A stretch of DNA of 63,983 bases, filler included, from Theionarchaea archaeon (GTDB taxonomy: Archaea; Methanobacteriota_B; Thermococci; Methanofastidiosales; SZ-28-30): the NCBI GenBank assembly GCA_018992565.1. It is 5 parts of 5 records of this genome, joined end to end, with 100 filler letters (N's around TTAATTAATTAA, not from the genome) between each part and the next. Parts side by side here need not be neighbours in the genome. Positions count along the whole stretch, not along the records: positions 48,619 to 56,788 come from JACVGW010000101.1; 4 more parts are not named here. One strand, 5' to 3'. A program made the translations under genes and the position numbers. Positions within the stretch are counted from its first letter, which is position 1; the number at the start of each line of letters is the position of its first letter. The notes under the pieces were generated by a model. That model saw nothing but the letters and a program-made list of their open reading frames with translations. It made no database searches and was not told the origin of the DNA. Shown here piece after piece: positions 3,890 to 56,788 of the stretch.

Positions 3890-4129
3890 ACTATCACCAT
3901 TTCCTGGACTTCTTACAACAATAAAAAGATTGGCTTCTGGCACACTTCGGATGTTTCCTGAGCAAGGTTCCCTCACCACTCGGGAGAATTACCATGAACC
4001 AATACGTGACAAGGAGCCAAAAGAGTGGGTTCCTCAACGGAGTTCAGGTCCCCGGGATTGTGAGACCTCGAGGGACCAGGAATCCCACAGCGACGAAAAA
4101 AAGCATCTCCACTGCCCACATCTCCAATA

Positions 4130-4327
4130 TTAATCTACATGCTCTTTGAGAACGTCATAGCATGCCCGCTCCTGTCCTGGTACACAAGTCCTGCAGACAC
4201 CCATGGCTATTCGGAAACAGCGGGGACATACCTTTTTCCCGCATAGAATGCATTCTCTCAAAGCTGGGGTGGTTCGTCCACAAATCTGGCATTTCTCCTT
4301 TTCCATGATTGTAAGTAAATGTTCCAC
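4130..4327 (-). CDS. Small zinc-finger protein (four CxxC pairs)
   Basis: CQIC...CILC...CPRC...CRTC in 65 aa. Confidence 0.7.
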   Translation of the reverse strand: MEHLLTIMEKEKCQICGRTTPALRECILCGKKVCPRCFRIAMGVCRTCVPGQERACYDVLKEHVD

Positions 4328-4464
4328 TTAAAAAGGTGTGGTTAGGCCCTTTCAAGAAGGTGGTTCAGAATAGAAGAATCTCAACCAGTGCAATCCTGAG
4401 ACGATGCGTGGCTTTGAACCATCTGAATCAGAAGGCTTTTAATTACTGAATCCGTGAATCATAT

Positions 4465-10787: not shown

Positions 10788-10964
10788 GCAATCATCTCAG
10801 TATGGATATCATGGTAAAGTGACCTGTGAGTTAAGAAGGTTTTGATCCTTGGTCAGTATCCTAGCTGGTTCCACCCCCTTCGTTCTGTCACTGGCTCACG
10901 AGCGTTCAGCTGGGTTGTAGAGTTCTTCTTTTCCTGATCCCACATTTTATAAGAGATACTGTGT

Positions 10965-13271
10965 ATGTGGTTCATGAACCTTTCCCACAGAAATCTGACC
11001 TTGCTTGATTACGCTGCTATTTCACTCATCATAGTGGAAACGGTGGTTCTGGTTCTGATGTGGGATTTTCTCCCCTCTGCAGAACTTGATACTCCCTACC
11101 ACCTCTTGATGGGGAAGATGTTCTCTGATCATGACGCCATCATGCTGTGGGACTATTATGAATATGCCCCTGCAGGAAGGCCCAACCTGTATCCTCCCCT
11201 GGAACATGTGATAGTGTGGTTGATGCATGGTGCAACAGGGGCAGAGTGGTGGGACGTTGGCCGCTTCATTTCCCTGATCCAGTACCCGCTGCCGTTGTTC
11301 ACTGTGTGGTTCTTCTCAAGAAAGCTATTTAACTCACTGACTGCTCTGGCTTCTGTGGTAGTGCTGTCCGCGACCAGCGATTTCTGGTACTGGCAGGTGT
11401 CCGTAGCTCCTACAGCATTAATCATATCACTGTATCCCCTCTTCTTATATACATTCTACAAGAAAAGAGTAATTGAGTCTATAGTGCTGCTGACTTCTTT
11501 CCTGTACCTTCACCTGGGGCTGCCGTATGTGATTATACTGAGTATGTTCATTTTCTCTGTAATCAGCCTGTACAAGACCAGGGAGTATCTGAAACAGGCA
11601 GGTATAGTCCTGGGAGCTGCTGTGCTGCTCTTTCTTCCGTGGATCATTCACATTGTCAGGTACCGGGAGTGGTTGAACGCAGGGTCGCCGGGGCAGCTTG
11701 ATGTGAGTTCTTTCTTGACAGGAGTCAACGTTGTGACATTCTTCTTTTTTATAGTTGGGGCGATCTCATGCATAGACAGAGCAAAGAAGGACCTCAAATA
11801 TGTGCTAGTACTGAGTGCTGTTGCTGGATTCCTTGTTATTGCTACGTATGGATGGCGTTACAGGATGCATTCTCCTATTATCAACTGTGTCATAACAGGT
11901 ATTGGATTTGAGACGGTTTACAGAAAAATCAGTTCTTCTGTGGTGAATTACAGAAAGGCGGGGGCTGTATTCCTGCTCCTCCTTATTCCACTTGGCACGT
12001 ACTCCCTCGTAGTGGCCCATGAGTCTCCTTTTGCTCCTGGACCCTCTCCGCAACTCCGTGTCCAGACACCTGGACTGCAGTCGTTTCAACGTCCACAGGT
12101 TCCCCAACCAGGAAATACCGATCAGGCTGCGCCTCCCGGCCTTCAGAGTAATATACAACCCCTGCAAAAGGATCAGCCCAGAAGGCCTGGCTCTTCTCTT
12201 TCTCTCCTCTCTGAGGTGACTCTCCGTGTGCAGACTTCGCCACTGCTGGATATGCTCAATTCATTGCGAACAGGCAGACGGCTGCCTCGAGTCTGGCAGA
12301 TCACCAATCCAGAAATTGACAAACTCATATCCTGGATCATTGCCAATACGTCGCCTGATGAGATTCTCCACCTGGATAATGGTATGCTTGCCGATTATCT
12401 GGCTTTGTTCACAGAGAGGAGAACAGATGCGGGAATGTACAGAGAAGTAACAGCTCCTGAGCTGCTACAGGCTGTCAGAGAAGGAAAGAAAAGTGGGATT
12501 TTCATAATTGAGCAGGGAAGGATGAGAGAACGTGGGATAACTCCAGAAATGACTGTTCTGGCGCAGTTCGGGGACTTACTGGTGATGCAGGGAACCAGAT
12601 CCCAAGAAGTCCCTCGGGAAATTCCTTTCCATTTGACAGAACTCCACATATTGTTCACCCAGCCGCAGAATATGGAGCAGTGGATAACCCTAGTCAGAGA
12701 CCTGGCTCCTCACAGGGTGTACGTGGGTGTGCAGCAGAAAGACCTTGGAACCCCCGACCTTCTCAACTTCATTACAAGGCTGTCCTCTCTTTCTGAGGTG
12801 GGACTGGCAATCACAGTGGATGATATCCACGCCCCCATGTCCCCTCCCCAAGTGGAGGCAATTCGATTACTCCTCCAACCTGAAAGGCTCTCAGTTGCCT
12901 ACGTACAATCAATACGTCAGAGCCTTGATCCTGGTACTGAGCTGGAAGTAGCCATTCTGGGACCGCCTATCTCCCAGAATTCATCACTGGTGAATACCTT
13001 GAAAGAAATTGCTCCTCTGACGAGCCGAATGGTGAGACATGTTTCGCCCAACGTAGAAGTTATCCACGCTGTTAGAGAAGAACAGGCTGTGCTCGGGATT
13101 CCCCTTTTCATCCAGATAGACATTCAACGGGGACGTTCTGCAATCACACCCCAGGAAGCCTACCTTCTCCTAGAAACAGCACACGGCATAGTCAGGAACA
13201 ACGTTATCATAGAGATTATGTATCCTCCCACTGATGTGCAGTTCATATCATTCCTGAAAGCAGTCTATTAA
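10965..13271 (+). CDS. Multi-pass membrane GT-C (AglB/STT3/PMT-like) glycosyltransferase-like protein with extra C-terminal soluble domain
   Basis: DTPYH...WDYYEYAPAGRPNLYPP early motif; about 11-12 TM helices; Pro/Gln-rich linker; WIIANTSPDEIL...RRT segment. Confidence 0.6.
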   Translation: MWFMNLSHRNLTLLDYAAISLIIVETVVLVLMWDFLPSAELDTPYHLLMGKMFSDHDAIMLWDYYEYAPAGRPNLYPPLEHVIVWLMHGATGAEWWDVGRFISLIQYPLPLFTVWFFSRKLFNSLTALASVVVLSATSDFWYWQVSVAPTALIISLYPLFLYTFYKKRVIESIVLLTSFLYLHLGLPYVIILSMFIFSVISLYKTREYLKQAGIVLGAAVLLFLPWIIHIVRYREWLNAGSPGQLDVSSFLTGVNVVTFFFFIVGAISCIDRAKKDLKYVLVLSAVAGFLVIATYGWRYRMHSPIINCVITGIGFETVYRKISSSVVNYRKAGAVFLLLLIPLGTYSLVVAHESPFAPGPSPQLRVQTPGLQSFQRPQVPQPGNTDQAAPPGLQSNIQPLQKDQPRRPGSSLSLLSEVTLRVQTSPLLDMLNSLRTGRRLPRVWQITNPEIDKLISWIIANTSPDEILHLDNGMLADYLALFTERRTDAGMYREVTAPELLQAVREGKKSGIFIIEQGRMRERGITPEMTVLAQFGDLLVMQGTRSQEVPREIPFHLTELHILFTQPQNMEQWITLVRDLAPHRVYVGVQQKDLGTPDLLNFITRLSSLSEVGLAITVDDIHAPMSPPQVEAIRLLLQPERLSVAYVQSIRQSLDPGTELEVAILGPPISQNSSLVNTLKEIAPLTSRMVRHVSPNVEVIHAVREEQAVLGIPLFIQIDIQRGRSAITPQEAYLLLETAHGIVRNNVIIEIMYPPTDVQFISFLKAVY

Positions 13272-48618: not shown

Positions 48619-48674
48619 GGGATTACCTGTATTAGGCCCCAGATTCTAAGATGATGAAGACGGAGGAGAACCCC

Positions 48675-50018
48675 ATGAGTGATATCAGTATAGTCAACGC
48701 CTCGCAAGTGGAGCACGGGCAGGGTGCGATTCCTGTTGGTCCGCTGCTCATCAGTGCTGTCCTCGAAGATCATGGATACAGCACTCGATTCAAGGACTAT
48801 CAAACCTTCCAGGCCCAGAAAAAGCTCAGCTTCAAGACCTTCTATAAATTCATCCAGGGCACGGAAAGCGTCATAGGAATAAGTGCTATTAGCAGCGATC
48901 TCCCTACCACGCTAGGCGCAATCACGCAGCTAAAGGAGGAACATCCAGAGAAAATTGTGATCTTGGGAGGACCCGGTCCAACAGACATTCCCGCAGAGAT
49001 ACTGGAGCACTTCCCGGTGGACATTATTGTGGTAGGTGAGGGCGAAGAGACAATTGTGGAAGTAATGCAGGCCCTTGATAAGAAAGAGAACCTTGAGGGC
49101 ATAGAGGGCATTGCGTACCGGGACAACGATCGCATTGTCATTTCTCCTCGGAGGAAGCGTATCCAAAATCTTGATTCTTTGCCATTCCCCGCTTACGATA
49201 AAATCGAATTCAAAGACTACAACTATTTAGGAGGAGTAATGACAATCAGGGGATGCCCCTACAGATGTACATTCTGCAGCGCTCATTCGGTATGGGAAAG
49301 AGAGATCACTCAGAGAACCGTGGAGAATGTCATAGAAGAGCTCCAGATCCTGAAAGAAAAGAGAGTCAGGAACATGTTCATCTATGATGACACCTTTGTA
49401 ATAGATTCACAGCGAGTCAAGAGGTTTGCTGAGCAATTTCACCAAGAATCAATTGATATTCCGTGGACCTGCTACGGAAGAATCAACCTCATGACGTCAG
49501 AGCTGCTGGAAATCATGGGGAAGAATGGGTGTAAAGAGATACTGTATGGAATTGAATCTGGTTCAAATAATGTTTTGAAGAGAGTGAACAAAAAATTCAC
49601 TATTGAAGAAGCATCAAGGATTGTGGAGAAGACAACACAGTACACAGATGTTGAAACGTCATATATCTGGGGATACCCCTTTGAAACTCTCGAAGATTTC
49701 TACGACACACTGATGGTAGTTTTCCACCAGACACACCTCCCTCGTGTAAGGCCACGGCTTGCTCTGCTTTCGCCTTTGCCAAAATCCGCTATTTTCTTGG
49801 AATATAGGGCCCAGATTGCATTTCCTGACGATCCTGAAATTGCACATCGTCTTGGATTTCTCCTGGGCAGAGAAAAACTCCTTGAATACCCTGAGGTAGT
49901 CGCACTGGTGAAGAGACATCCCGGGCTCTTCCCATCCTTCTATTACTTCTCTCATGATTTGCTAGAGCAGAAGCTGGAGCTATTCAAAACCATGGAGCAG
50001 AACCTATCACGGGCTTGA
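48675..50018 (+). CDS. Cobalamin-dependent (class B) radical SAM enzyme, putative RiPP methyltransferase 3
   Basis: B12-binding Rossmann domain (ILGGPGPT, VVGEGEET); RGCPYRCTFC; GIESGS; GGAGGAG before ATG at 48675. Confidence 0.9.
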   Translation: MSDISIVNASQVEHGQGAIPVGPLLISAVLEDHGYSTRFKDYQTFQAQKKLSFKTFYKFIQGTESVIGISAISSDLPTTLGAITQLKEEHPEKIVILGGPGPTDIPAEILEHFPVDIIVVGEGEETIVEVMQALDKKENLEGIEGIAYRDNDRIVISPRRKRIQNLDSLPFPAYDKIEFKDYNYLGGVMTIRGCPYRCTFCSAHSVWEREITQRTVENVIEELQILKEKRVRNMFIYDDTFVIDSQRVKRFAEQFHQESIDIPWTCYGRINLMTSELLEIMGKNGCKEILYGIESGSNNVLKRVNKKFTIEEASRIVEKTTQYTDVETSYIWGYPFETLEDFYDTLMVVFHQTHLPRVRPRLALLSPLPKSAIFLEYRAQIAFPDDPEIAHRLGFLLGREKLLEYPEVVALVKRHPGLFPSFYYFSHDLLEQKLELFKTMEQNLSRA

Positions 50019-50134
50019 GAGTCCTGACTTCCAGGTCCACCTGGAATCCAGAAATGGATCAGAGATGGCACCAGTGGAATCAACCTAGCTTTCTCTTGAA
50101 ATCCTGCTGCTCTTATCTGATTTCGCCACACATT

Positions 50135-50152
50135 GAAAAAGAAAAAAAAGAA
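50135..50152 (-). terminator. U-tract terminator after MFS gene
   Basis: Plus-strand gaaaaagaaaaaaaagaa reads as a poly-T tract on the minus strand about 15 nt after the stop at 50167. Confidence 0.6.
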
Positions 50153-50166
50153 GTCAGTGACTCCAA

Positions 50167-51414
50167 CTAGAGTTCTCTGATGCCTGGCACGAGAGAGATG
50201 CTGATTCCCCCAATGATCAATGCAGTGCCGGAGATGAGCAGCATGGTAACAACAGATGTCAAATCAATGAGAGTGCCCATGACTGCATATGATAAGGGGA
50301 CCAGGGCCATGGTCATGGTAACATAGACGCCAAAGACTTTGCCACGTTTCTCATTTGGGGTCAGCGTTTGCAGAAGAGTAATAATAACGATCTCTCCAAA
50401 CCCGCTGATGATCCCCTGAATAGCCATGAGAGCCATAGCAAAGTAGAAGTTTATCACCGTGCCAATTCCCAGCAGAGTCACCCCTGCCACAATAGGGAAT
50501 AAGATGAGAATTCTAGATTTATTTTCTATCTTCGGCTTAACAGCAAGAATGAAGGTCGATACCAGAATGCCCAGAGAATCCGCACTAATGAGGAGCCCGT
50601 ACGCCAGATCACCCATATGATAGTACGTTTCAGACAGAATCTTGAACACGATCACCAGGGGTGCTGCAAAGAATGTCATTGCTCCCAGGACTATGATAAT
50701 ACCCAGGATGGGCTTTTTCTCCAGAATGAATCCAAATCCTTCCTTCATATCGGCGAGAACGTGCTTTTCCGGACCTTCACGTCTGACAAGAGGTATTGTA
50801 ATGAAAGACTCAGAGAACGCAGAGAACAGAAATGATATTCCATTGATTATGAAAGCTAAAGGAACTCCGAGGGTTACCACCAGAATGCCTCCGATTGCAG
50901 GTCCTATAACGCCAGAAATCTTTGAAGTGATTCCTATCAGACTATTCGCACGATTTAGCTCCTCTTCAGGGACAATAGTTGGAATAGATGCTCTCAGGGC
51001 AGGATTGAAAAACACCTGAGCTATCGACATGATGACTGTTCCCACGTAGAGAACAGGAAGTGTCAAGGTGTCACTGATGACAAGCCATCCCAAGTACAGG
51101 ACAACGATTCCTCGCACTGCATCCATCCACACAATGAGGTTCTTGCGGCTCCACCTGTCTGCGTAACTTCCTGCTATGGGCCCCAAAAAGACCTGTGGGA
51201 TTACCATCATCATCAAGACAGTTCCTGTTACCGCGGCAGACCCTGTCTCTGCAATGACAAGAGAGACCAGAGCAAGGAGATAGATCCAATCTCCCGCCTG
51301 AGATACCCCCTGTCCTGCCCACAGGAGCAAGAAGTTCTTGTCCCTGAGAATACTGGATTTTTTCTTCTCTTCTGTTCCTTCTTTGTTTGGATTTTCTACT
51401 CCCGTAGAATCCAT
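50167..51414 (-). CDS. MFS exporter (DHA3/MefA-like)
   Basis: NFLLLWAGQGVS..GD, GSYADRWSRK, 12 TM helices, RGKVFG. Confidence 0.9.
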   Translation of the reverse strand: MDSTGVENPNKEGTEEKKKSSILRDKNFLLLWAGQGVSQAGDWIYLLALVSLVIAETGSAAVTGTVLMMMVIPQVFLGPIAGSYADRWSRKNLIVWMDAVRGIVVLYLGWLVISDTLTLPVLYVGTVIMSIAQVFFNPALRASIPTIVPEEELNRANSLIGITSKISGVIGPAIGGILVVTLGVPLAFIINGISFLFSAFSESFITIPLVRREGPEKHVLADMKEGFGFILEKKPILGIIIVLGAMTFFAAPLVIVFKILSETYYHMGDLAYGLLISADSLGILVSTFILAVKPKIENKSRILILFPIVAGVTLLGIGTVINFYFAMALMAIQGIISGFGEIVIITLLQTLTPNEKRGKVFGVYVTMTMALVPLSYAVMGTLIDLTSVVTMLLISGTALIIGGISISLVPGIREL

Positions 51415-51416
51415 GA

Positions 51417-52295
51417 TTACACCTCCTTTGAACTGGCAGGAATTGAGAAAACTCTGCCTCCTCTCGTATACATGGTCATCTCATGAGGAGCATTCCCAGA
51501 TAGATGGAGAGTGAGGGAATCCTGCTCAAAGTCGCGCATTAAAAACATGATACCGTGTGGTACGTCAAATGCCAAAAACCCCTTATGGGTTGCCTGTGAG
51601 ACGTCCAATCCTTCAATGAGAATCCAGTAGGTGGTCTCAATTGCACGTCTGAGATGTATCTCTGTTACAATGTCCAGTGATATGGGGCTGCCTTCCTCCA
51701 CATTGACAATCACATCATCCTGGACTTCAATTGCAGTTGCCAATGTGCGTACATCTGAATCTCCTGTGGTTGGAGACAGAGAAGTAGCTCCTTGAGAACC
51801 GAATCCCTGAAGAAAGGCGAGATAACTGAGAAATGCACTACTATAGTATATGGAAAGTGCGAGAAAGAGCACGTTCAGCAAAATGTTTACCGCAATCCCT
51901 GAAAGTCCACGTCTCAGAAGGAACGTAGCTGAAGAATGGACGGGATGATCCTCTGCTATTTCCGTACGCATATTAAAGAGCAACAGGGGGTTATGGTAAT
52001 TATACAAGAGCTGTGTTTTTGTCTTGCATCCCATGGATCGTAAGACAACAACATGTCCCATCTCATGCAGAAAGGCTGCCAGAAAAAGACCACCATATGT
52101 CACTGGGATCACCAGCAATAACCTAGAGAGAGACGGTGTTGAAAAGGAGGAGACGATCTGAAATAGCATAACGCTCAAGGGTATTCCCATGAGGAGGACA
52201 CCTGTTGCTTTGCCGTATACAGGATGCGAGAGAAAAGAAGCTATTAAAATCATTACTCTAATGTGGAAAGGATACTTCCCGGCGGTGTAGTTCAT
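51417..52295 (-). CDS. Membrane zinc metallopeptidase-like protein (M50/site-2-protease-like) with C-terminal soluble domain
   Basis: LHEMGH after a TM helix; SGIAVN where M50 has 'AGP..N'; downstream P...DSD. Confidence 0.65.
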   Translation of the reverse strand: MNYTAGKYPFHIRVMILIASFLSHPVYGKATGVLLMGIPLSVMLFQIVSSFSTPSLSRLLLVIPVTYGGLFLAAFLHEMGHVVVLRSMGCKTKTQLLYNYHNPLLLFNMRTEIAEDHPVHSSATFLLRRGLSGIAVNILLNVLFLALSIYYSSAFLSYLAFLQGFGSQGATSLSPTTGDSDVRTLATAIEVQDDVIVNVEEGSPISLDIVTEIHLRRAIETTYWILIEGLDVSQATHKGFLAFDVPHGIMFLMRDFEQDSLTLHLSGNAPHEMTMYTRGGRVFSIPASSKEV

Positions 52296-53692
52296 TCCTC
52301 TGATCCCCCTTTTCCCTCAAAGTTCTGCTTCTTCTCCAGAAGTTCTTTCTCACTTTCAACCTCCCAGATTTTCCAGTCTATTTTTGAAATTGTCTCCAAT
52401 TTCTGTCTGAACTCCGGGTGATCATAGTAGTAGAAACTTGAAAAAACCTGCGGATATTCCTTGATCATTTCAGTGACATGAGGATAGCTCTTCAAAGACT
52501 GTTTAATTGGCAACCCCCCTGCTCTGGATTGAATTGAGGGGTCAAACCGTATGAGGTGGCTGTACTCCTGGAAAATAGGTGAACTGGGCAATGGAGAGAG
52601 AAGTGACATCTGGGTTACTGCTTTCTTCAGGCGAATGTCTTCTCCCATGGACATCAGGGTATCATAGAACTCTTCGAGTGACGAAAATGGAAATCCCCAG
52701 ATATATGAAGTCCGCACTCGTTCAAAATCGTAGGTCACTGTCTTCCGTATGACCTCCCGTGCCTGTTCTATAGTATGCCCTTTATGCAGTTTCTGGAGTA
52801 CTCTATTTGATCCCGACTCAACACCATAAAAGAGCTGGAAACATCCTGTTTCAGAGAGCTTGGTTAAGAGCTCATCATCCATTAACGTTATTTTTCCATT
52901 GCATGTATACGGAAGATCCACTCCTTCGCCACGGATTGCATCTATAATATCCATGGCACGGGATTTCTGTATGACAAATGTGTCATCAAGGAATCCAAGC
53001 ATGATGGAATCATCTGCCACCTGGAGGACTTCTTCAACAATATTCTCCACTGACCTGTACTCCATGTGACGCTGCCAGATTGAATGCGCACTGCAGAACC
53101 CACAGTCATAGGGGCACCCACGGGCGCTCATGATGCAAGCAAGCCGCTGATAGTCAGCAAAATTGACGTGATGATATGCAGGGAAAGGGAGTGAATCCAG
53201 GTCCTTGATTCTCTCTCGTGGTGGAGTAGTTATGACCTTGCCATTGTCTCTGTATACGATACCCTTAACCGTGTCCAGGGGAGTTCCCTCCTGCAGGGCT
53301 TCCATCAATTCTACAGTTGTGTATTCACCTTCTCCCATCACGATAACGTCCACGGGATACTCCTCCAAGATGCTCCCTCCTACATCCGTTGGAGCAGGTC
53401 CTCCCAGAATCACCAGCGTATCCGGGTGTTCTTCCTTCAGCTTCACCACAGCCCCAAGAACTGTGGGAAGCGCATTGCAGATGACGCTGATTCCCACGAT
53501 GTCTGAGGTGGGGTTCATGAAGGAATAGAATTCATTGGGGTCAGGGTGGCGTGTGGGGTCATGGAGCTGATAGTCTCTAAAATCCACCGAAAACCCCTTC
53601 TCTTCCAGAATGGAGACTATTCTCAGGGGTCCAATAGGAAGACCTGGCCGATATTCACCAAATCCAGAGTTTAAAATTAATATATCACTCAT
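52292..53692 (-). CDS. Cobalamin-dependent radical SAM enzyme, putative RiPP methyltransferase 2
   Basis: ILGGPAPT, VMGEGEYT, RGCPYDCGFC, GVESGS. Confidence 0.9.
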   Translation of the reverse strand: MSDILILNSGFGEYRPGLPIGPLRIVSILEEKGFSVDFRDYQLHDPTRHPDPNEFYSFMNPTSDIVGISVICNALPTVLGAVVKLKEEHPDTLVILGGPAPTDVGGSILEEYPVDVIVMGEGEYTTVELMEALQEGTPLDTVKGIVYRDNGKVITTPPRERIKDLDSLPFPAYHHVNFADYQRLACIMSARGCPYDCGFCSAHSIWQRHMEYRSVENIVEEVLQVADDSIMLGFLDDTFVIQKSRAMDIIDAIRGEGVDLPYTCNGKITLMDDELLTKLSETGCFQLFYGVESGSNRVLQKLHKGHTIEQAREVIRKTVTYDFERVRTSYIWGFPFSSLEEFYDTLMSMGEDIRLKKAVTQMSLLSPLPSSPIFQEYSHLIRFDPSIQSRAGGLPIKQSLKSYPHVTEMIKEYPQVFSSFYYYDHPEFRQKLETISKIDWKIWEVESEKELLEKKQNFEGKGGSEE

Positions 53693-55026
53693 GAAGATCC
53701 CTCCTTCTTCTCTCTTTCCCTTATTTTATCAATCATTTTGCATTTTTCCTCAAATCCTTCATTCTCATAGTAGTAGAATGAGCTGAAAACGTCTGGATTT
53801 CTCCTCACCAGATCTTCCAGTTCAGGGTAACCTCTCAGTCTTTCAGGAGGAGGCAGTGTAGAGCCATTATATGTATTGTCCAGCATGAACTTGAGTGTAT
53901 GAGAATACTCACTGTACAGTGTTGTGGACTGAAATGGCGTCACCAGCGTCATTACCGGCTGGACTCCTGACATCTGGACATCTTCCATCTGAAACATCAC
54001 AGTATCATAGAAATCATCCAGAGACTCTCCAGGAAATCCCCACATATATGATGTGTAAACTCGATCGAAATGTTGATTCGCCCTTACAATGTCCTGTCTC
54101 GCCTCTTCTGGCTTGAATTCTTTCCGTATCTTCTTAAGGATAGAACTAGACCCTGATTCTATTCCCAGAAAGAGAGTATCACACCCGGCATGACTCATGG
54201 ATTCCATGAGCGAGTCCGGCAACATACCGACTCTGCCAGTACAGGACCAGTTCTTATCAATGCCTTCTTTCTTGAGGCTCTCGCAGAATTCCACCACCCG
54301 TTCTTTTTCTAGAACGAAGGTGTCATCAGACAAATTGATCCTGTCAATCTTATCCTCGATTTGCAGCAATTCATCTATAACATTCTCAACAGAGCGTAAC
54401 GTCTTTCTGCTCTTCCAGATGGACTTGACACAGAACGTACACTGGAATGGACAACCCCGGGCAGTAATGACATTTGCCTCTTTCCTGTATTCTCCAAAAT
54501 CGATATGATGATAGGCTGGAAAAGGCACAGAATCCAGATCGACAATTCGCTGCCGCTCCGGTGTGGTCACAATGTTGCCGTTGTCTCTATAGCAGATACC
54601 ATTCACAGAGCTGAGGGAATCTCCCCTGTCAAGAGCCTCCATGATCTCCACAATAGTCCTTTCACCTTCACCCACAACTGCTATATCAACCGCGGAGAGT
54701 TCCAGAAGGCGTTCAGTACTCACCGAGGCAGCTGGTCCTCCAAGTATGACAGTAACATCATGGCTCTCTTTCAGAAGACTCACAGCCTTCAGTACGGAAG
54801 GTAGTGCATTGCAAAAGACACTGATACCCAGAACAGGCGCAGAAGATTCCATGAAATGTGAGAGCACTTCCGGATCTGCCTTTCTTTTCACATCTTCGTT
54901 CTGATAGTCTGTAAATTCAACGGAATACCCGGCTTCTTCCAGAGACGCTGCAATGTACAGGAGGCCAATGCCCAACTGCCCTCTGCCTGCACCAATCACT
55001 GAATTCATCAGAGTAATATCTGTCAT
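53689..55026 (-). CDS. Cobalamin-dependent radical SAM enzyme, putative RiPP methyltransferase 1
   Basis: ILGGPAAS, VVGEGERT, RGCPFQCTFC, GIESGS; likely start MTDITL at 55026 (ORF track gives 55047). Confidence 0.9.
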   Translation of the reverse strand: MTDITLMNSVIGAGRGQLGIGLLYIAASLEEAGYSVEFTDYQNEDVKRKADPEVLSHFMESSAPVLGISVFCNALPSVLKAVSLLKESHDVTVILGGPAASVSTERLLELSAVDIAVVGEGERTIVEIMEALDRGDSLSSVNGICYRDNGNIVTTPERQRIVDLDSVPFPAYHHIDFGEYRKEANVITARGCPFQCTFCVKSIWKSRKTLRSVENVIDELLQIEDKIDRINLSDDTFVLEKERVVEFCESLKKEGIDKNWSCTGRVGMLPDSLMESMSHAGCDTLFLGIESGSSSILKKIRKEFKPEEARQDIVRANQHFDRVYTSYMWGFPGESLDDFYDTVMFQMEDVQMSGVQPVMTLVTPFQSTTLYSEYSHTLKFMLDNTYNGSTLPPPERLRGYPELEDLVRRNPDVFSSFYYYENEGFEEKCKMIDKIREREKKEGSS

Positions 55027-55047
55027 TCCTATCTCCTCTTTCTTCAC

Positions 55048-55323
55048 TCAGACCGTCACAAGACTCTTGTTTTTCAAGTCCTCAATCAATTCTATGGTGT
55101 CAGCCAGGACTTCATCAAACGAGGGAGCACCCTCAATCGTGGTGTGAATCTCCTGCGCAATCTCTCTGATGGTGCGATCACCAGTGCACTGGTTCCATAT
55201 TTCGCGTCCCACTTCGTTAACCACAAAATACTGGGCAGTCATCACGTTGAAGAGGGCCAGATCATCCCCCTGTTCACGTGGCCGGACATGTGCAACTCTT
55301 TTTGGTTTGGCTGTATCTTCCAT
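55048..55323 (-). CDS. Stand-alone PqqD-family RiPP recognition element (RRE)
   Basis: 91 aa; 'YFVVNEVGREIWNQCTGDRTIREIAQEI...DTIELIEDLKNKSLV' fits the PqqD pattern N..G..IW...dG..T..EI...L....L. Confidence 0.9.
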   Translation of the reverse strand: MEDTAKPKRVAHVRPREQGDDLALFNVMTAQYFVVNEVGREIWNQCTGDRTIREIAQEIHTTIEGAPSFDEVLADTIELIEDLKNKSLVTV

Positions 55324-55328
55324 TCATT

Positions 55329-56435
55329 TCACCTCATACACTCTATTTCCTCACAGATTCTCCCGACAGGATAGTCTTCACAAATCTCTGCGTATTCCTT
55401 CCCTGGATCCATGGCCGCTATGGGACATGGCACACATTCCTTGGGGAAAAAATCACATTCGTCACACCTGGGGAGATATTCTGCTATCACATTTGGAGAC
55501 TGCATATAAAACAATCGTTCAAAATCCTCAGAACATAAAATATCGACAATTCCATTCTCCAGGAGACTGCTGCCACGACTGACATATACATCATGATTCT
55601 TGAGGGTGAGGTCCGGGAGAGCACCTTTACAAGGAAAAGCAGTCCCGTCAGCACGGATGAAGATGGTTGACGTGGTCGCCCCACATTTCTTTGGTTCTAT
55701 TGGCAGGTGGATGCCATACTTCTCATTCAAATATTCAATCAAAGGGGGCATGGCAAATAACATAGTGACAAATTCACAATTCATATCAAGTTCAAGAAGG
55801 GTCTCAATAACAGTTTCAGCAAGATGGATGAATTCCAGAGGAGAAAGGATGACACTCCGTTCCATGGTAGCTGCATTTCCCTGATATGACAGCATCTCCA
55901 AAATGACACGAGTGAAATTCATGTCCTTTGCCATTTTGATAAGTGTAGTAACCTCATGAACATTCATTTTGGAAACAACCACATCCATCACCAGTGAATC
56001 CAGAGAATGCGTGGCCACAGCTGAGACATTTCCCACTACCTTGTCGAAATTACTTCCCCTGCGAATGTATGAATAGGTCTCTCTAGAAGCTCCATCAATA
56101 CTCACTGCAACGCCCTTGAGCCCTGCCTCAATAAGAGACTCCAGCAACTCCTCAGTGAGAAGGAGTCCATTCGTGATAATAAACGGGGCTGAATTCCTGT
56201 TCTTTACCTGCCTTACTATCTGTGGAAGGTCTTTCCGAAGCAGCGGTTCGCCTCCGAACATTCCCACATTCGCGATTGGTAGAATACACAGGTTTTCCAG
56301 AACACACATCATGTTCTCTGTGGACAGCTCTGTTTGGTTTCCTCTATACAGAGACGTTGCATAACAATGCCTACAATTAAGGTTACAACGTGGAGTGACA
56401 TCCCAGTCTACAAAGCTCAATCCACCTTTGGCCAT
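55329..56435 (-). CDS. Radical SAM/SPASM-domain peptide maturase
   Basis: CNLNCRHC, GGEPLLR, TNG, VSIDG; SPASM cysteines CGA...IRADG..FPC and CDEC......CVPC plus distal Cys. Confidence 0.9.
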   Translation of the reverse strand: MAKGGLSFVDWDVTPRCNLNCRHCYATSLYRGNQTELSTENMMCVLENLCILPIANVGMFGGEPLLRKDLPQIVRQVKNRNSAPFIITNGLLLTEELLESLIEAGLKGVAVSIDGASRETYSYIRRGSNFDKVVGNVSAVATHSLDSLVMDVVVSKMNVHEVTTLIKMAKDMNFTRVILEMLSYQGNAATMERSVILSPLEFIHLAETVIETLLELDMNCEFVTMLFAMPPLIEYLNEKYGIHLPIEPKKCGATTSTIFIRADGTAFPCKGALPDLTLKNHDVYVSRGSSLLENGIVDILCSEDFERLFYMQSPNVIAEYLPRCDECDFFPKECVPCPIAAMDPGKEYAEICEDYPVGRICEEIECMR

Positions 56436-56514
56436 TACATCACTTTCTTTCGCTTTCTAATCCGTATCTTTGGCGTTCAAAGAATCCTTTGTCAGTGAAT
56501 ACTTCTCTTTGCAT

Positions 56515-56540
56515 AAATAAAAAAAATAGAAAGTAAAGAA
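56515..56540 (-). terminator. U-rich terminator/attenuator between precursor and maturase genes
   Basis: Minus strand reads TTCTTTACTTTCTATTTTTTTTATTT about 20-45 nt after the precursor stop. Confidence 0.55.
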
Positions 56541-56557
56541 GTACTACATTGGTTGAT

Positions 56558-56644
56558 CTAGTATGGCACGGCAGGCAGGCTGATGAGCCACTTGTCTGCT
56601 GTAATCCTTACAGTAATTTCTTCTAATCTGGGCTTTGCGTACAT
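56558..56644 (-). CDS. Putative RiPP precursor peptide, 28 aa: MYAKPRLEEITVRITADKWLISLPAVPY (not in ORF track)
   Basis: ATG at 56644 to TAG at 56558; AGGAGGTGA ribosome site 6 nt upstream (56651-56659); YxxPxL leader motif; first gene ahead of the SPASM and RRE genes. Confidence 0.85.
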   Translation of the reverse strand: MYAKPRLEEITVRITADKWLISLPAVPY

Positions 56645-56713
56645 AAGTATTCACCTCCTTTCATTTTGTACTACAGAATCTAAGACTGATTCTGTTGTTA
56701 GAATTACCCTAAA

Positions 56714-56730
56714 GTATTTATAAGCTTTTC
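56714..56730 (-). promoter_or_regulatory. BRE/TATA promoter for precursor and RiPP operon
   Basis: Minus strand GAAAAGCTTATAAATAC about 70 nt upstream of the precursor ATG. Confidence 0.65.
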
Positions 56731-56762
56731 CATTATTTACAGGATTAATCTCCTTTTATATA

Positions 56763-56780
56763 GAAAAAGGTTTATAGATA
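56763..56780 (+). promoter_or_regulatory. Divergent BRE/TATA pointing into the gap
   Basis: GAAAAAGGTTTATAGATA immediately before the contig end. Confidence 0.45.
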
Positions 56781-56788
56781 ATTCAAAG

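Follow-up and report, generated by a model that had tools for sequence, protein, structure and literature searches.

A 28-residue peptide gene of a theionarchaeon as the probable precursor gene of an undescribed family of radical SAM-modified peptides

The window analysed here is a stretch of 63,983 nucleotides from a Theionarchaea archaeon (assembly GCA_018992565.1), made of contigs of a metagenome-assembled genome (MAG) joined by N. One of them, the 8170-bp contig C73 (JACVGW010000101.1, window positions 48619-56788), carries a short open reading frame (ORF) of 28 codons followed by genes for radical S-adenosylmethionine (rSAM) enzymes and a PqqD-type protein. The ORF most probably encodes the precursor of an undescribed family of ribosomally synthesised peptides with post-translational modifications (RiPPs) that is modified by rSAM enzymes. 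In three genomic backgrounds, related peptides were found with a fixed gene set comprising an rSAM enzyme with a SPASM domain (rSAM/SPASM), a discrete PqqD, two to five B12-binding rSAM enzymes (B12-rSAMs), a site-2-protease (S2P)-like membrane protease and a transporter of the major facilitator superfamily (MFS). The group is a new family within the rSAM RiPPs that depend on a RiPP recognition element (RRE); it has an unusual enzyme set and occurs in both archaea and bacteria. The combination by which RRE-dependent rSAM/SPASM RiPP clusters are recognised, an rSAM motif with a Cys-rich domain, a PqqD and a small conserved adjacent precursor, was found here in full.

Conservation of the peptide gene and of its gene set

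The peptide gene was compared codon by codon with its counterpart in G001, a Theionarchaea MAG of the same genus and the only close relative among the genomes compared (rSAM/SPASM gene 82% identical). The comparison revealed 10 synonymous and two non-synonymous sense-codon changes (R6M and V26L), 13 of the 16 substitutions being located at third positions. No indels were detected and the stop codon changed from TAG to TAA. The nucleotide identity was 81.6% for the ORF, 75.9% for the promoter region and 59.7% for the spacer to the next gene. Between the lineages of the family, four to eight of the identical residues per pair were encoded by different codons. The ORF is a real gene under purifying selection, with conservation far above chance, and two of its homologues (P0021 and P0022) are included in the JGI gene calls.

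The preliminary description, made from the sequence alone, had reported the 28-residue ORF, a ribosome-binding site, a box resembling a B recognition element (BRE) and TATA element, and a T-rich tract, and had regarded the ORF as a precursor-type gene. All these elements are present in the sequence and retained in G001, the T-tract despite the rest of the spacer being only 59.7% identical, and together with the coding signature they bear out that proposal. The box GAAAAGCTTATAAATAC would act as the promoter, and the T-rich tract after the stop codon is likely a partial archaeal terminator, which would leave more peptide message than enzyme message. The arms of an inverted repeat upstream of the gene were also retained in G001 (one A to G change, with which a G-U pair is still possible), and the loop differs; the repeat may form a hairpin in the RNA or be bound by a regulator. 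The ORF is located 144 nt from the end of C73, at which the known upstream context in the source genome stops. Of four sequencing runs compared with the window, X17 gave no match; in X19, a second strain contig differed at 7 places within the 59 nt of spacer that separate the peptide gene from the rSAM gene (56453-56511). The sole read contig over the peptide gene was identical to the window, and the strain comparison is too thin to count.

Close relatives of the rSAM/SPASM enzyme are few. Among 5.8 billion proteins, 15 sequences, the window's own included, were found with E ≤ 5e-68, and the next matches were at most 30% identical; one of the relatives is named Candidatus Methanofastidiosia by its source. 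Loci were retrieved with the alignment of the rSAM homologues (two loci of 16 pattern matches in the genome collection and four of 85 in the metagenome collection), and a six-frame motif scan covered 30 loci and the window. A related peptide was detected at all eight of the retrieved loci that encode close homologues (34-100% identical) of the rSAM gene at 55329-56435, as the preliminary description had anticipated for a true precursor. These were the window's own locus (100%), G001 (82%), the genome G002 (49%, with a partial rSAM gene at the contig end and a 49-aa form of the peptide with a long tail), four metagenome contigs (43%, peptide ending in NIKADKILMSIHVC or HVCN) and a Clostridia MAG (34%, peptide ending in ITADKWLLSLKQLAD). 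At the 18 loci with more distant rSAMs (L004-L021), no match to the peptide motif patterns was found. The sequence GGAGGTGA was present at the matching place in G001, in the Clostridia locus, in the metagenome loci and in G002. In the G002 copy (L022, G002:C31, 328-480, minus strand), a possible GTG or TTG start was noticed within a ribosome-site-like sequence, and its tail of ~26 residues is rich in S, F, Y and C.

The protein databases, searched with the peptide alignment headed by the 49-aa G002 sequence, added P0021-P0025 and nothing else convincing. Among these, P0022 ends in HVAE, and P0023, P0024 and P0025 have the sequences MYAKPMVKEVSISITADKWLISLSESQVQ, MKYRTPALEEVEVTVKADKIVMSTSAVCA and MEYKKPEINEISISISTDKWLVSLAPVAAK, respectively. 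In a search of 1.84 billion representatives, four short family peptides were found among six rows at E ≤ 0.001, with no other convincing match. P0026 and P0027 from this search were regarded as not belonging to the family; P0026, a protein of 142 aa, contains four tandem segments like LLEVSVKATxWLMSL, resembling profile positions 12-24 (E 2.7e-4), which could be a chance repeat or a multi-copy precursor. A scan of the phylum detected the peptide in three of 133 genomes at E ≤ 1e-13, all of one genus and with one copy each, and six further matches (E 0.019-0.094) covered part of the profile only. Among 400 sampled Clostridia genomes, it was detected in one (G133). The three genomic backgrounds of the family have GC contents of 47%, 30% and 63%. 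Comparison of five family peptides with Pfam and NCBIfam at E ≤ 10 gave no family match, although the HMMER filters can drop weak ones; rows at chance level were obtained for SiaC (0.18) and DUF5972 (0.13 over 8 residues).

The features of the window are collected in Table 1. The operon starts with the peptide gene, followed by those for rSAM/SPASM, PqqD, B12-rSAM a, B12-rSAM b, the membrane protease and the MFS transporter. The gene order was the same in G001 and in the Clostridia locus, the latter with two B12 enzymes. The metagenome loci were arranged as peptide, PqqD, four B12-rSAMs, rSAM/SPASM, a fifth B12-rSAM, a membrane protein and MFS, so that the peptide gene was located 6 kb from the rSAM/SPASM gene and directly before PqqD. 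An MFS gene was present in every cluster, at the same position in the Clostridia and metagenome loci. Orthologous B12 copies a and b are shared by the archaeal and the clostridial clusters, which means that the operon moved as one unit. A convergent third B12-rSAM gene matching copy c of the window was found in G001, and this conserved position suggests that c belongs to the pathway. The G001 cluster (L023, G001:C10:27000-42000) is flanked upstream by a gene for a GNAT acetyltransferase (339 aa, 736-1755) and, beyond the third B12-rSAM, by one for an S8 subtilase (522 aa, 10817-12385). Either of them could take part in the pathway; the matching regions of the window fall past the contig ends.

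Table 1. Features of the peptide cluster on contig C73 (positions in the window)
Feature	Position	Strand	Remarks
Precursor peptide gene, 28 aa	56558..56644; stop codon 56558-56560	(-)	translates to MYAKPRLEEITVRITADKWLISLPAVPY followed by a stop
Regions of the precursor			residues 1-12, predicted PqqD-binding leader; 13-23, conserved segment; 24-28, variable tail
Ribosome-binding site AGGAGGTGA	56651..56659	(-)	6 nt 5' of ATG
BRE/TATA-like promoter box GAAAAGCTTATAAATAC	56714..56730	(-)	A/T-rich; 70-86 nt upstream of ATG
Inverted repeat CAGAATC-N7-GATTCTG	56674..56694	(-)	presumed 5' untranslated region, between TATA-like box and ribosome site
T-rich tract	56511..56531; T8 at 56519-56526	(-)	T8 lies 31 nt past stop
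Radical SAM/SPASM enzyme, 368 aa	55329..56435	(-)	no fused RRE
Discrete PqqD-type RRE, 91 aa	55048..55323	(-)	Pfam PqqD 1.8e-11
B12-binding radical SAM enzyme a, 452 aa	53689..55047	(-)	Pfam B12-binding and Radical_SAM
B12-binding radical SAM enzyme b, 466 aa	52292..53692	(-)
Membrane metalloprotease, 292 aa	51417..52295	(-)	S2P-like core (HEMGH), C-terminal beta-sandwich; candidate leader peptidase
MFS transporter	50167..51414	(-)	probable exporter; Pfam MFS_1 1.3e-40
Third B12-binding radical SAM enzyme c	48651..50018	(+)	convergent with the operon; 32 nt from contig start

The rSAM/SPASM enzyme matched Pfam Radical_SAM (1.7e-24) with the CxxxCxxC motif formed by C17, C21 and C24, and seven C-terminal Cys residues were invariant in 15 homologues. 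It reached no NCBIfam equivalog cut-off, and its nearest solved relatives, all distant, were GDGT-MAS, PqqE, MoaA and SkfB. For all three B12 enzymes, the best NCBIfam match was ApyD (NF050148), with 167 (enzyme a), 170 and 172 bits vs a cut-off of 750 bits; the matches span profile positions ~26-436 of 645, leaving the RRE-bearing part unmatched.

In the membrane protease, residues H77, E78, G80, H81 and D181 were invariant in four of four homologues. In its structural model (pLDDT 80), residues 55-192 aligned to RseP (Z 9.4), SpoIVFB (Z 9.2), Aquifex RseP (Z 8.2) and the S2P of M. jannaschii (Z 8.1, 24% identity), with root-mean-square deviations of 3.0-3.6 over 119-133 residues, values that helical folds can also reach by chance. 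With Foldseek, the PDB gave only weak matches to the protein, all of them to its C-terminal beta-sandwich; the S2P core was detected in the wider structure search. No Pfam or NCBIfam model fitted the SPASM enzyme or the protease. Due to the metal motif, the sub-threshold match to Pfam M50 and the S2P-like fold matches, the protein is regarded as a probable leader peptidase. To our knowledge, S2P-type intramembrane proteases are not known from RiPP pathways.

Predicted docking of the leader and conservation of the following segment

Among the 11 family sequences, Y2, P5, E9 and S22 were invariant, residue 7 was either L or I and the Tyr was always located at residue 2 or 3, so the YxxPxL motif of the preliminary description holds throughout the family with I as a variant at residue 7. 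The binding of Y2-P5-L7 to the neighbouring PqqD, also proposed there, was borne out as far as computation goes. A model of the complex of PqqD and the peptide scored ipSAE 0.69 (0.70, 0.67 and 0.69 in three runs) vs 0.03 for the best control; the runs shared at least 85% of contacts and the pLDDT of the partner was 57-60. In the model, residues 1-12 of the peptide contact PqqD at positions 31-39 and 63-88 (strand beta3 and helix alpha3), and peptide residues 13-28 remain free of PqqD. The score mark used was reached by 58 of 80 solved complexes and by two of 110 mismatched pairs. Since the calibration contained no chains under 30 residues and complexes of this kind have already been solved, the result is taken as a likeness to known RRE-leader complexes and not as proof. 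By sequence profile, the nearest solved sequence of PqqD was the lasso chaperone TbiB1 (E 4.3e-4), ahead of true PqqD (E 0.018). Residues 1-12 probably dock on PqqD as the leaders of lasso peptides do, with M-Y-x-x-P-x-L/I-x-E-I/V-x-V/I predicted to lie as a strand on beta3/alpha3, the standard RRE mode.

The segment that follows (residues 13-23, ITADKWLISL) was as conserved as the leader, and the tail alone varied, over the last 3-7 residues or, in G002, ~26 residues. Between the window and the Clostridia locus, 15 of 22 residues of Y2-L23 were identical (68%), whereas the identity was 34% for the rSAM, 38% for PqqD and 29% for the protease. Were this stretch only a leader, it should have diverged along with the proteins that read it, so this pattern favours a conserved modified segment around A-D-K-Φ-Φ-x-S, and modification is most likely placed in [IV]-x-A-[DS]-[KR]-Φ-Φ-x-S.

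The course of maturation can be outlined as follows. PqqD would grip the leader and present the free segment from about residue 13 to the enzymes. The B12-rSAMs may methylate unactivated carbons; the bottromycin and polytheonamide methylases are C-methylating RiPP enzymes of this type. The SPASM enzyme may introduce one change based on hydrogen abstraction, a cross-link or an epimerisation. The membrane protease would cut off the leader and the MFS transporter would export the product, of which the variable tail may be a part unless it serves as a follower.

Alternative readings

Some observations weigh against the ORF as the precursor of a modified peptide, or against single parts of this reading. 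Twenty sequencing runs are listed as containing this DNA, from 6 studies that cover marine sediment, soil, mangrove and unspecified metagenomes; all are DNA runs and none is of RNA. The family is tiny, and all statistics rest on few lineages. The G002 copy has AGG where the others have ATG and its contig is truncated; an upstream GTG may serve as its start, or the gene may be in decay. The SPASM match in Pfam is just below the cut-off (19.8 vs 21.5 bits), and that of the protease to M50 (E 4.8e-4) reached 20 bits vs 27.2. The position of W19 is occupied by I in five sequences and by F in one, and no Cys is conserved, so no known type of cross-link can be assigned. Residues 13-23 may be conserved because the enzymes recognise them and not because they form a core. 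To the limits of the calibration described above are added the shallow alignments behind the complex model, with 5 and 6 rows supplied and 4 rows counted for PqqD.

In one alternative, residues 1-23 are leader throughout, read first by PqqD and then by the enzymes, and the core is the variable C-terminal part of 3-7 residues (PAVPY here), heavily tailored into a very small product as in mycofactocin or aminopyruvatide. It is considered unlikely. In its favour, the peptide shows the classic leader/core pattern, with a conserved N-terminal part ahead of a hypervariable C-terminus, most tails contain an aliphatic V or L, and ApyD, the best match of the B12 enzymes, methylates the C-beta of the penultimate Tyr in a C-terminal pentapeptide (PMC10635010). 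The 68% identity of Y2-L23 vs 29-38% for the enzymes would, however, be unusual for a pure leader. Moreover, the tails range from 3 to ~26 residues and offer no fixed residue on which two to five enzymes could act, and the complex model leaves residues 13-28 free of PqqD. A precursor modified in its conserved segment accounts better for these observations.

The preliminary description itself had proposed that a lasso-type leader ends with T15-A16, the Thr taking the penultimate position, that cleavage occurs before D17 and that the core DKWLISLPAVPY is then modified by rSAM enzymes. This is very improbable, even though YxxPx[LI] is conserved, TbiB1 is the nearest solved relative of PqqD and the model docks residues 1-12. 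In lasso peptides, the full leader motif is YxxPxLx3Gx5Tx and the core carries an acidic residue at position 7-9 for the macrolactam. Compared with this motif, the Thr would come two residues later and a Gly would be expected, and neither holds; positions 7-9 of DKWLISLPAVPY are L, P and A, with no acidic residue. Thr at the penultimate leader position is a rule of lasso peptides (PMC10368454), but at the place of T15, four of the 11 family sequences have T, six have K and one has S, and A16 is replaced by T in P0025 alone. Residues A16, D17 and K18 are located inside the most conserved block (ADKW..S), unlike a junction that precedes a variable core. A B2 protease able to read the Thr is absent from the cluster: in agreement with the earlier statement that lasso machinery is lacking, neither a lasso cyclase nor a B2 protease was detected among the Pfam and NCBIfam matches of the cluster genes or in the G001, Clostridia and metagenome loci. 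A scan of the genome (88% complete) for PF13471 gave 19.6 bits at best, under the 26-bit cut-off; for the cyclase, no search of the whole genome was made. Cleavage before D17 and a core that starts there were therefore not upheld.

Of the wider claim that a lasso-style leader has been reused here, the motif and the docking stand, and a loan from lasso peptides in particular does not. In one source, the motif of discrete lasso RREs is given as [Y/W]xxPx[L/V/I/F/A], and LPP (linear polyphosphorylated peptides; LppA/LppB; Nat Commun 2026) is presented as a non-lasso family with YxxP leaders that bind a lasso-like RRE (PMC13381572); elsewhere YxxP is listed as the lasso motif among 13 motif groups (PMC12710340). 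With this precedent, and with the motif also carried by a second rSAM/PqqD cluster of the source genome (see below), [Y/W]xxPxΦ is better read as a general recognition motif of discrete PqqD-type chaperones.

It could also be supposed that the peptide gives rise to a cofactor for the cell's own use, like PQQ or mycofactocin, instead of a secreted peptide, a view to which hardly any probability is assigned. The rSAM is distantly PqqE-like and the peptide is very strongly conserved. PqqA begins with aromatic-x-x-Pro, a start that the family peptide shares. The format of a very short peptide with conserved residues 16-22 resembles PqqA, in which Glu16 and Tyr20 are cross-linked (PMC10906245). Nevertheless, none of five family peptides matched the PqqA family even at E ≤ 10, the sequence contains no E-x-x-x-Y, W19 is replaceable by I or F, and the PQQ equivalog scores were far from their cut-offs (PqqE 101 vs 381 bits; PqqD 21 vs 46 bits). 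A dedicated MFS exporter accompanies every cluster, and the sporadic distribution (3/133 and 1/400 genomes) fits an accessory secreted product. Finally, the absence of any functional peptide gene, the frame being due to chance or being a regulatory upstream ORF of which translation alone matters, can practically be dismissed: the ORF is short and flanked by a conserved hairpin and a T-tract, but its amino-acid sequence is kept across 30%, 47% and 63% GC with many synonymous differences, and in the metagenome loci the gene is found directly before PqqD and 6 kb from rSAM/SPASM. The precursor of an rSAM-modified peptide, with the modification placed in the conserved segment, is retained as the preferred reading.

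Other PqqD clusters of the source genome and comparison with known systems

The source genome (G000, a 2.8 Mb MAG that is 88% complete) contains 22 PqqD matches, of which 17 exceed the Pfam cut-off, and was matched by the rSAM/SPASM query at least 32 times, on contigs C4, C13, C24, C30, C49, C62, C97, C110, C119, C133, C147 and others. Such a set of RRE-dependent rSAM clusters is unusually dense. The cluster on C24 (L052, G000:C24:29700-37000) encodes a 41-aa peptide, MYKPPMMVDLISPDKMVANTCSNGSGSDNSCSNGDDGGFVY (L052:1421-1543), preceded by GGAGGTGA and located directly before a PqqD gene (product 29% identical to that of the window), which is followed by two rSAM/SPASM genes. The cluster on C4 (L053, G000:C4:3500-13500) contains, on the minus strand at ~3891-3968 and 4265-4363, the tandem precursors MYIKSEIEEISMEIDQCMCCAAAPIDNIGVVA and MYIRSEIEEISMEIDQCMCCAVIVD. 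Both begin with MYIKSEIEEISMEIDQCMCC and have Ser in place of Pro in a leader otherwise like that of the window peptide, and each has its own TATA-like box (GAAAGATTTATAAG), GGTGA site and T-tract. Their neighbours are three rSAM genes, of which two encode a SPASM domain, and genes for an MFS protein, a PqqD and a methyltransferase. The C4 PqqD showed no BLASTP similarity to that of the window. A 289-aa protein of the C4 cluster was considered as a relative of the window protease and rejected (hhalign probability 0.07%).

The [YW]xxPxΦ motif is present in the C24 leader with its Pro kept, and the C4 leader shows the same frame with Ser for Pro. The PqqD-dependent rSAM clusters of this archaeon repeatedly use leaders that start with M-Y and continue with Φ-x-[ED]-Φ. 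Because this design recurs beside other PqqD genes, the M-Y leader of the window peptide is not a one-off loan from lasso peptides. Genome-wide, 1034 small ORFs with [YW]xxPxΦ were counted, 32 of them near PqqD genes, which is about the chance expectation, and the raw count is thus not used as evidence. Motif-bearing candidates on C62 and C13 were dropped, as they were located inside longer ORFs.

A wider proposal can be advanced only tentatively, as it is judged somewhat more likely to fail than to hold. It states that Theionarchaea-like archaea, a Clostridia bacterium and a high-GC lineage share a new RiPP class, in which one discrete, lasso-like PqqD passes a peptide of 27-30 residues serially to a SPASM enzyme and to two to five B12-rSAMs, the product is poly-C-methylated, cross-linked or epimerised, the ITADKWLxSL segment is held more tightly than the pathway's own enzymes, and an S2P-type intramembrane protease matures it. 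If so, the conservation of ITADKWLxSL above that of the enzymes would imply a molecular target that is itself conserved, or a role in signalling or as a cofactor. That the peptide is more conserved across domains than the enzymes suggests a product that acts on a conserved target. Likewise, the 17 PqqD genes and at least three clusters with M-Y leaders would offer a natural system for asking how many nearly identical pairs of leader and RRE are kept from mixing within one cell.

Few archaeal RiPPs have been characterised. The literature searched, mainly the main texts of open-access papers, yielded no account of this gene set or of the peptides, so an earlier bioinformatic listing is possible. 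Within the same scope, YxxPxL, PqqD and radical SAM were not found together and the peptide strings were not found in a relevant context; on the broader topic, general papers on rSAM RiPPs were found. Made up of a single 28-aa peptide, its chaperone and four or five rSAM enzymes, the system is compact and testable. It bears on how a single discrete RRE serves several radical enzymes, on the reach of the [Y/W]xxP recognition code beyond lasso peptides and on the action of multiple B12-rSAMs on a short aliphatic peptide.

Among known systems, lasso biosynthesis (TbiA/TbiB1, PDB 5V1U/5V1V) shares with the window cluster the recognition motif, a small discrete PqqD-type chaperone and the predicted strand docking at beta3/alpha3. 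In contrast to it, the window cluster has no lasso cyclase or B2 protease, the Thr at position -2 is not conserved, the Tyr is located at residue 2-3 without an N-terminal extension and the downstream enzymes are all radical SAM proteins. LPP resembles the present family as a non-lasso RiPP with a YxxP leader read by a discrete lasso-like RRE (PMC13381572). As described there, LPP differs in its SipW-type signal peptidase, in polyphosphorylation, as its name says, in precursors of 35-200 aa and in its occurrence in Bacillota, whereas rSAM/SPASM and B12-rSAM enzymes, a precursor of 27-30 aa and an S2P-like protease are found here. Of the LPP leader motif YxxPxVLxHQxIxFETxxS (PMC13381572), the window peptide shares the YxxPxΦ part only, and no signal peptidase was detected among the Pfam and NCBIfam matches of the cluster.

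In the PQQ pathway (PqqA/PqqD/PqqE), too, the precursor is very short and is joined by a discrete PqqD and a SPASM rSAM, and PqqE is among the nearest solved rSAM relatives. PqqA binds to PqqD through its N-terminal leader, and its C-terminal part reaches into the rSAM barrel (PMC10906245), an arrangement close to the one outlined above. The window cluster differs by B12-rSAMs, a protease and an exporter in place of PqqB/C/F and by the lack of a Glu/Tyr pair. The C-methylated RiPPs of the ApyD type also have several B12-binding rSAMs in one peptide cluster, and ApyD is the best NCBIfam match. Unlike ApyD, which has a fused RRE (645 positions), the window enzymes have 452-466 aa and no RRE, and the partner enzymes are a P450 and an MNIO there and a SPASM enzyme here. 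The sporulation killing factor pathway, in which SkfC is the membrane protease, and other SPASM RiPPs that rely on such a protease are similar in uniting a SPASM rSAM (SkfB is one of the nearest solved relatives) with a protease embedded in the membrane and an exporter. The present family differs from them in having no conserved Cys for a thioether, in a protease that is S2P/M50-like and not of the CAAX type, and in its additional B12 enzymes.

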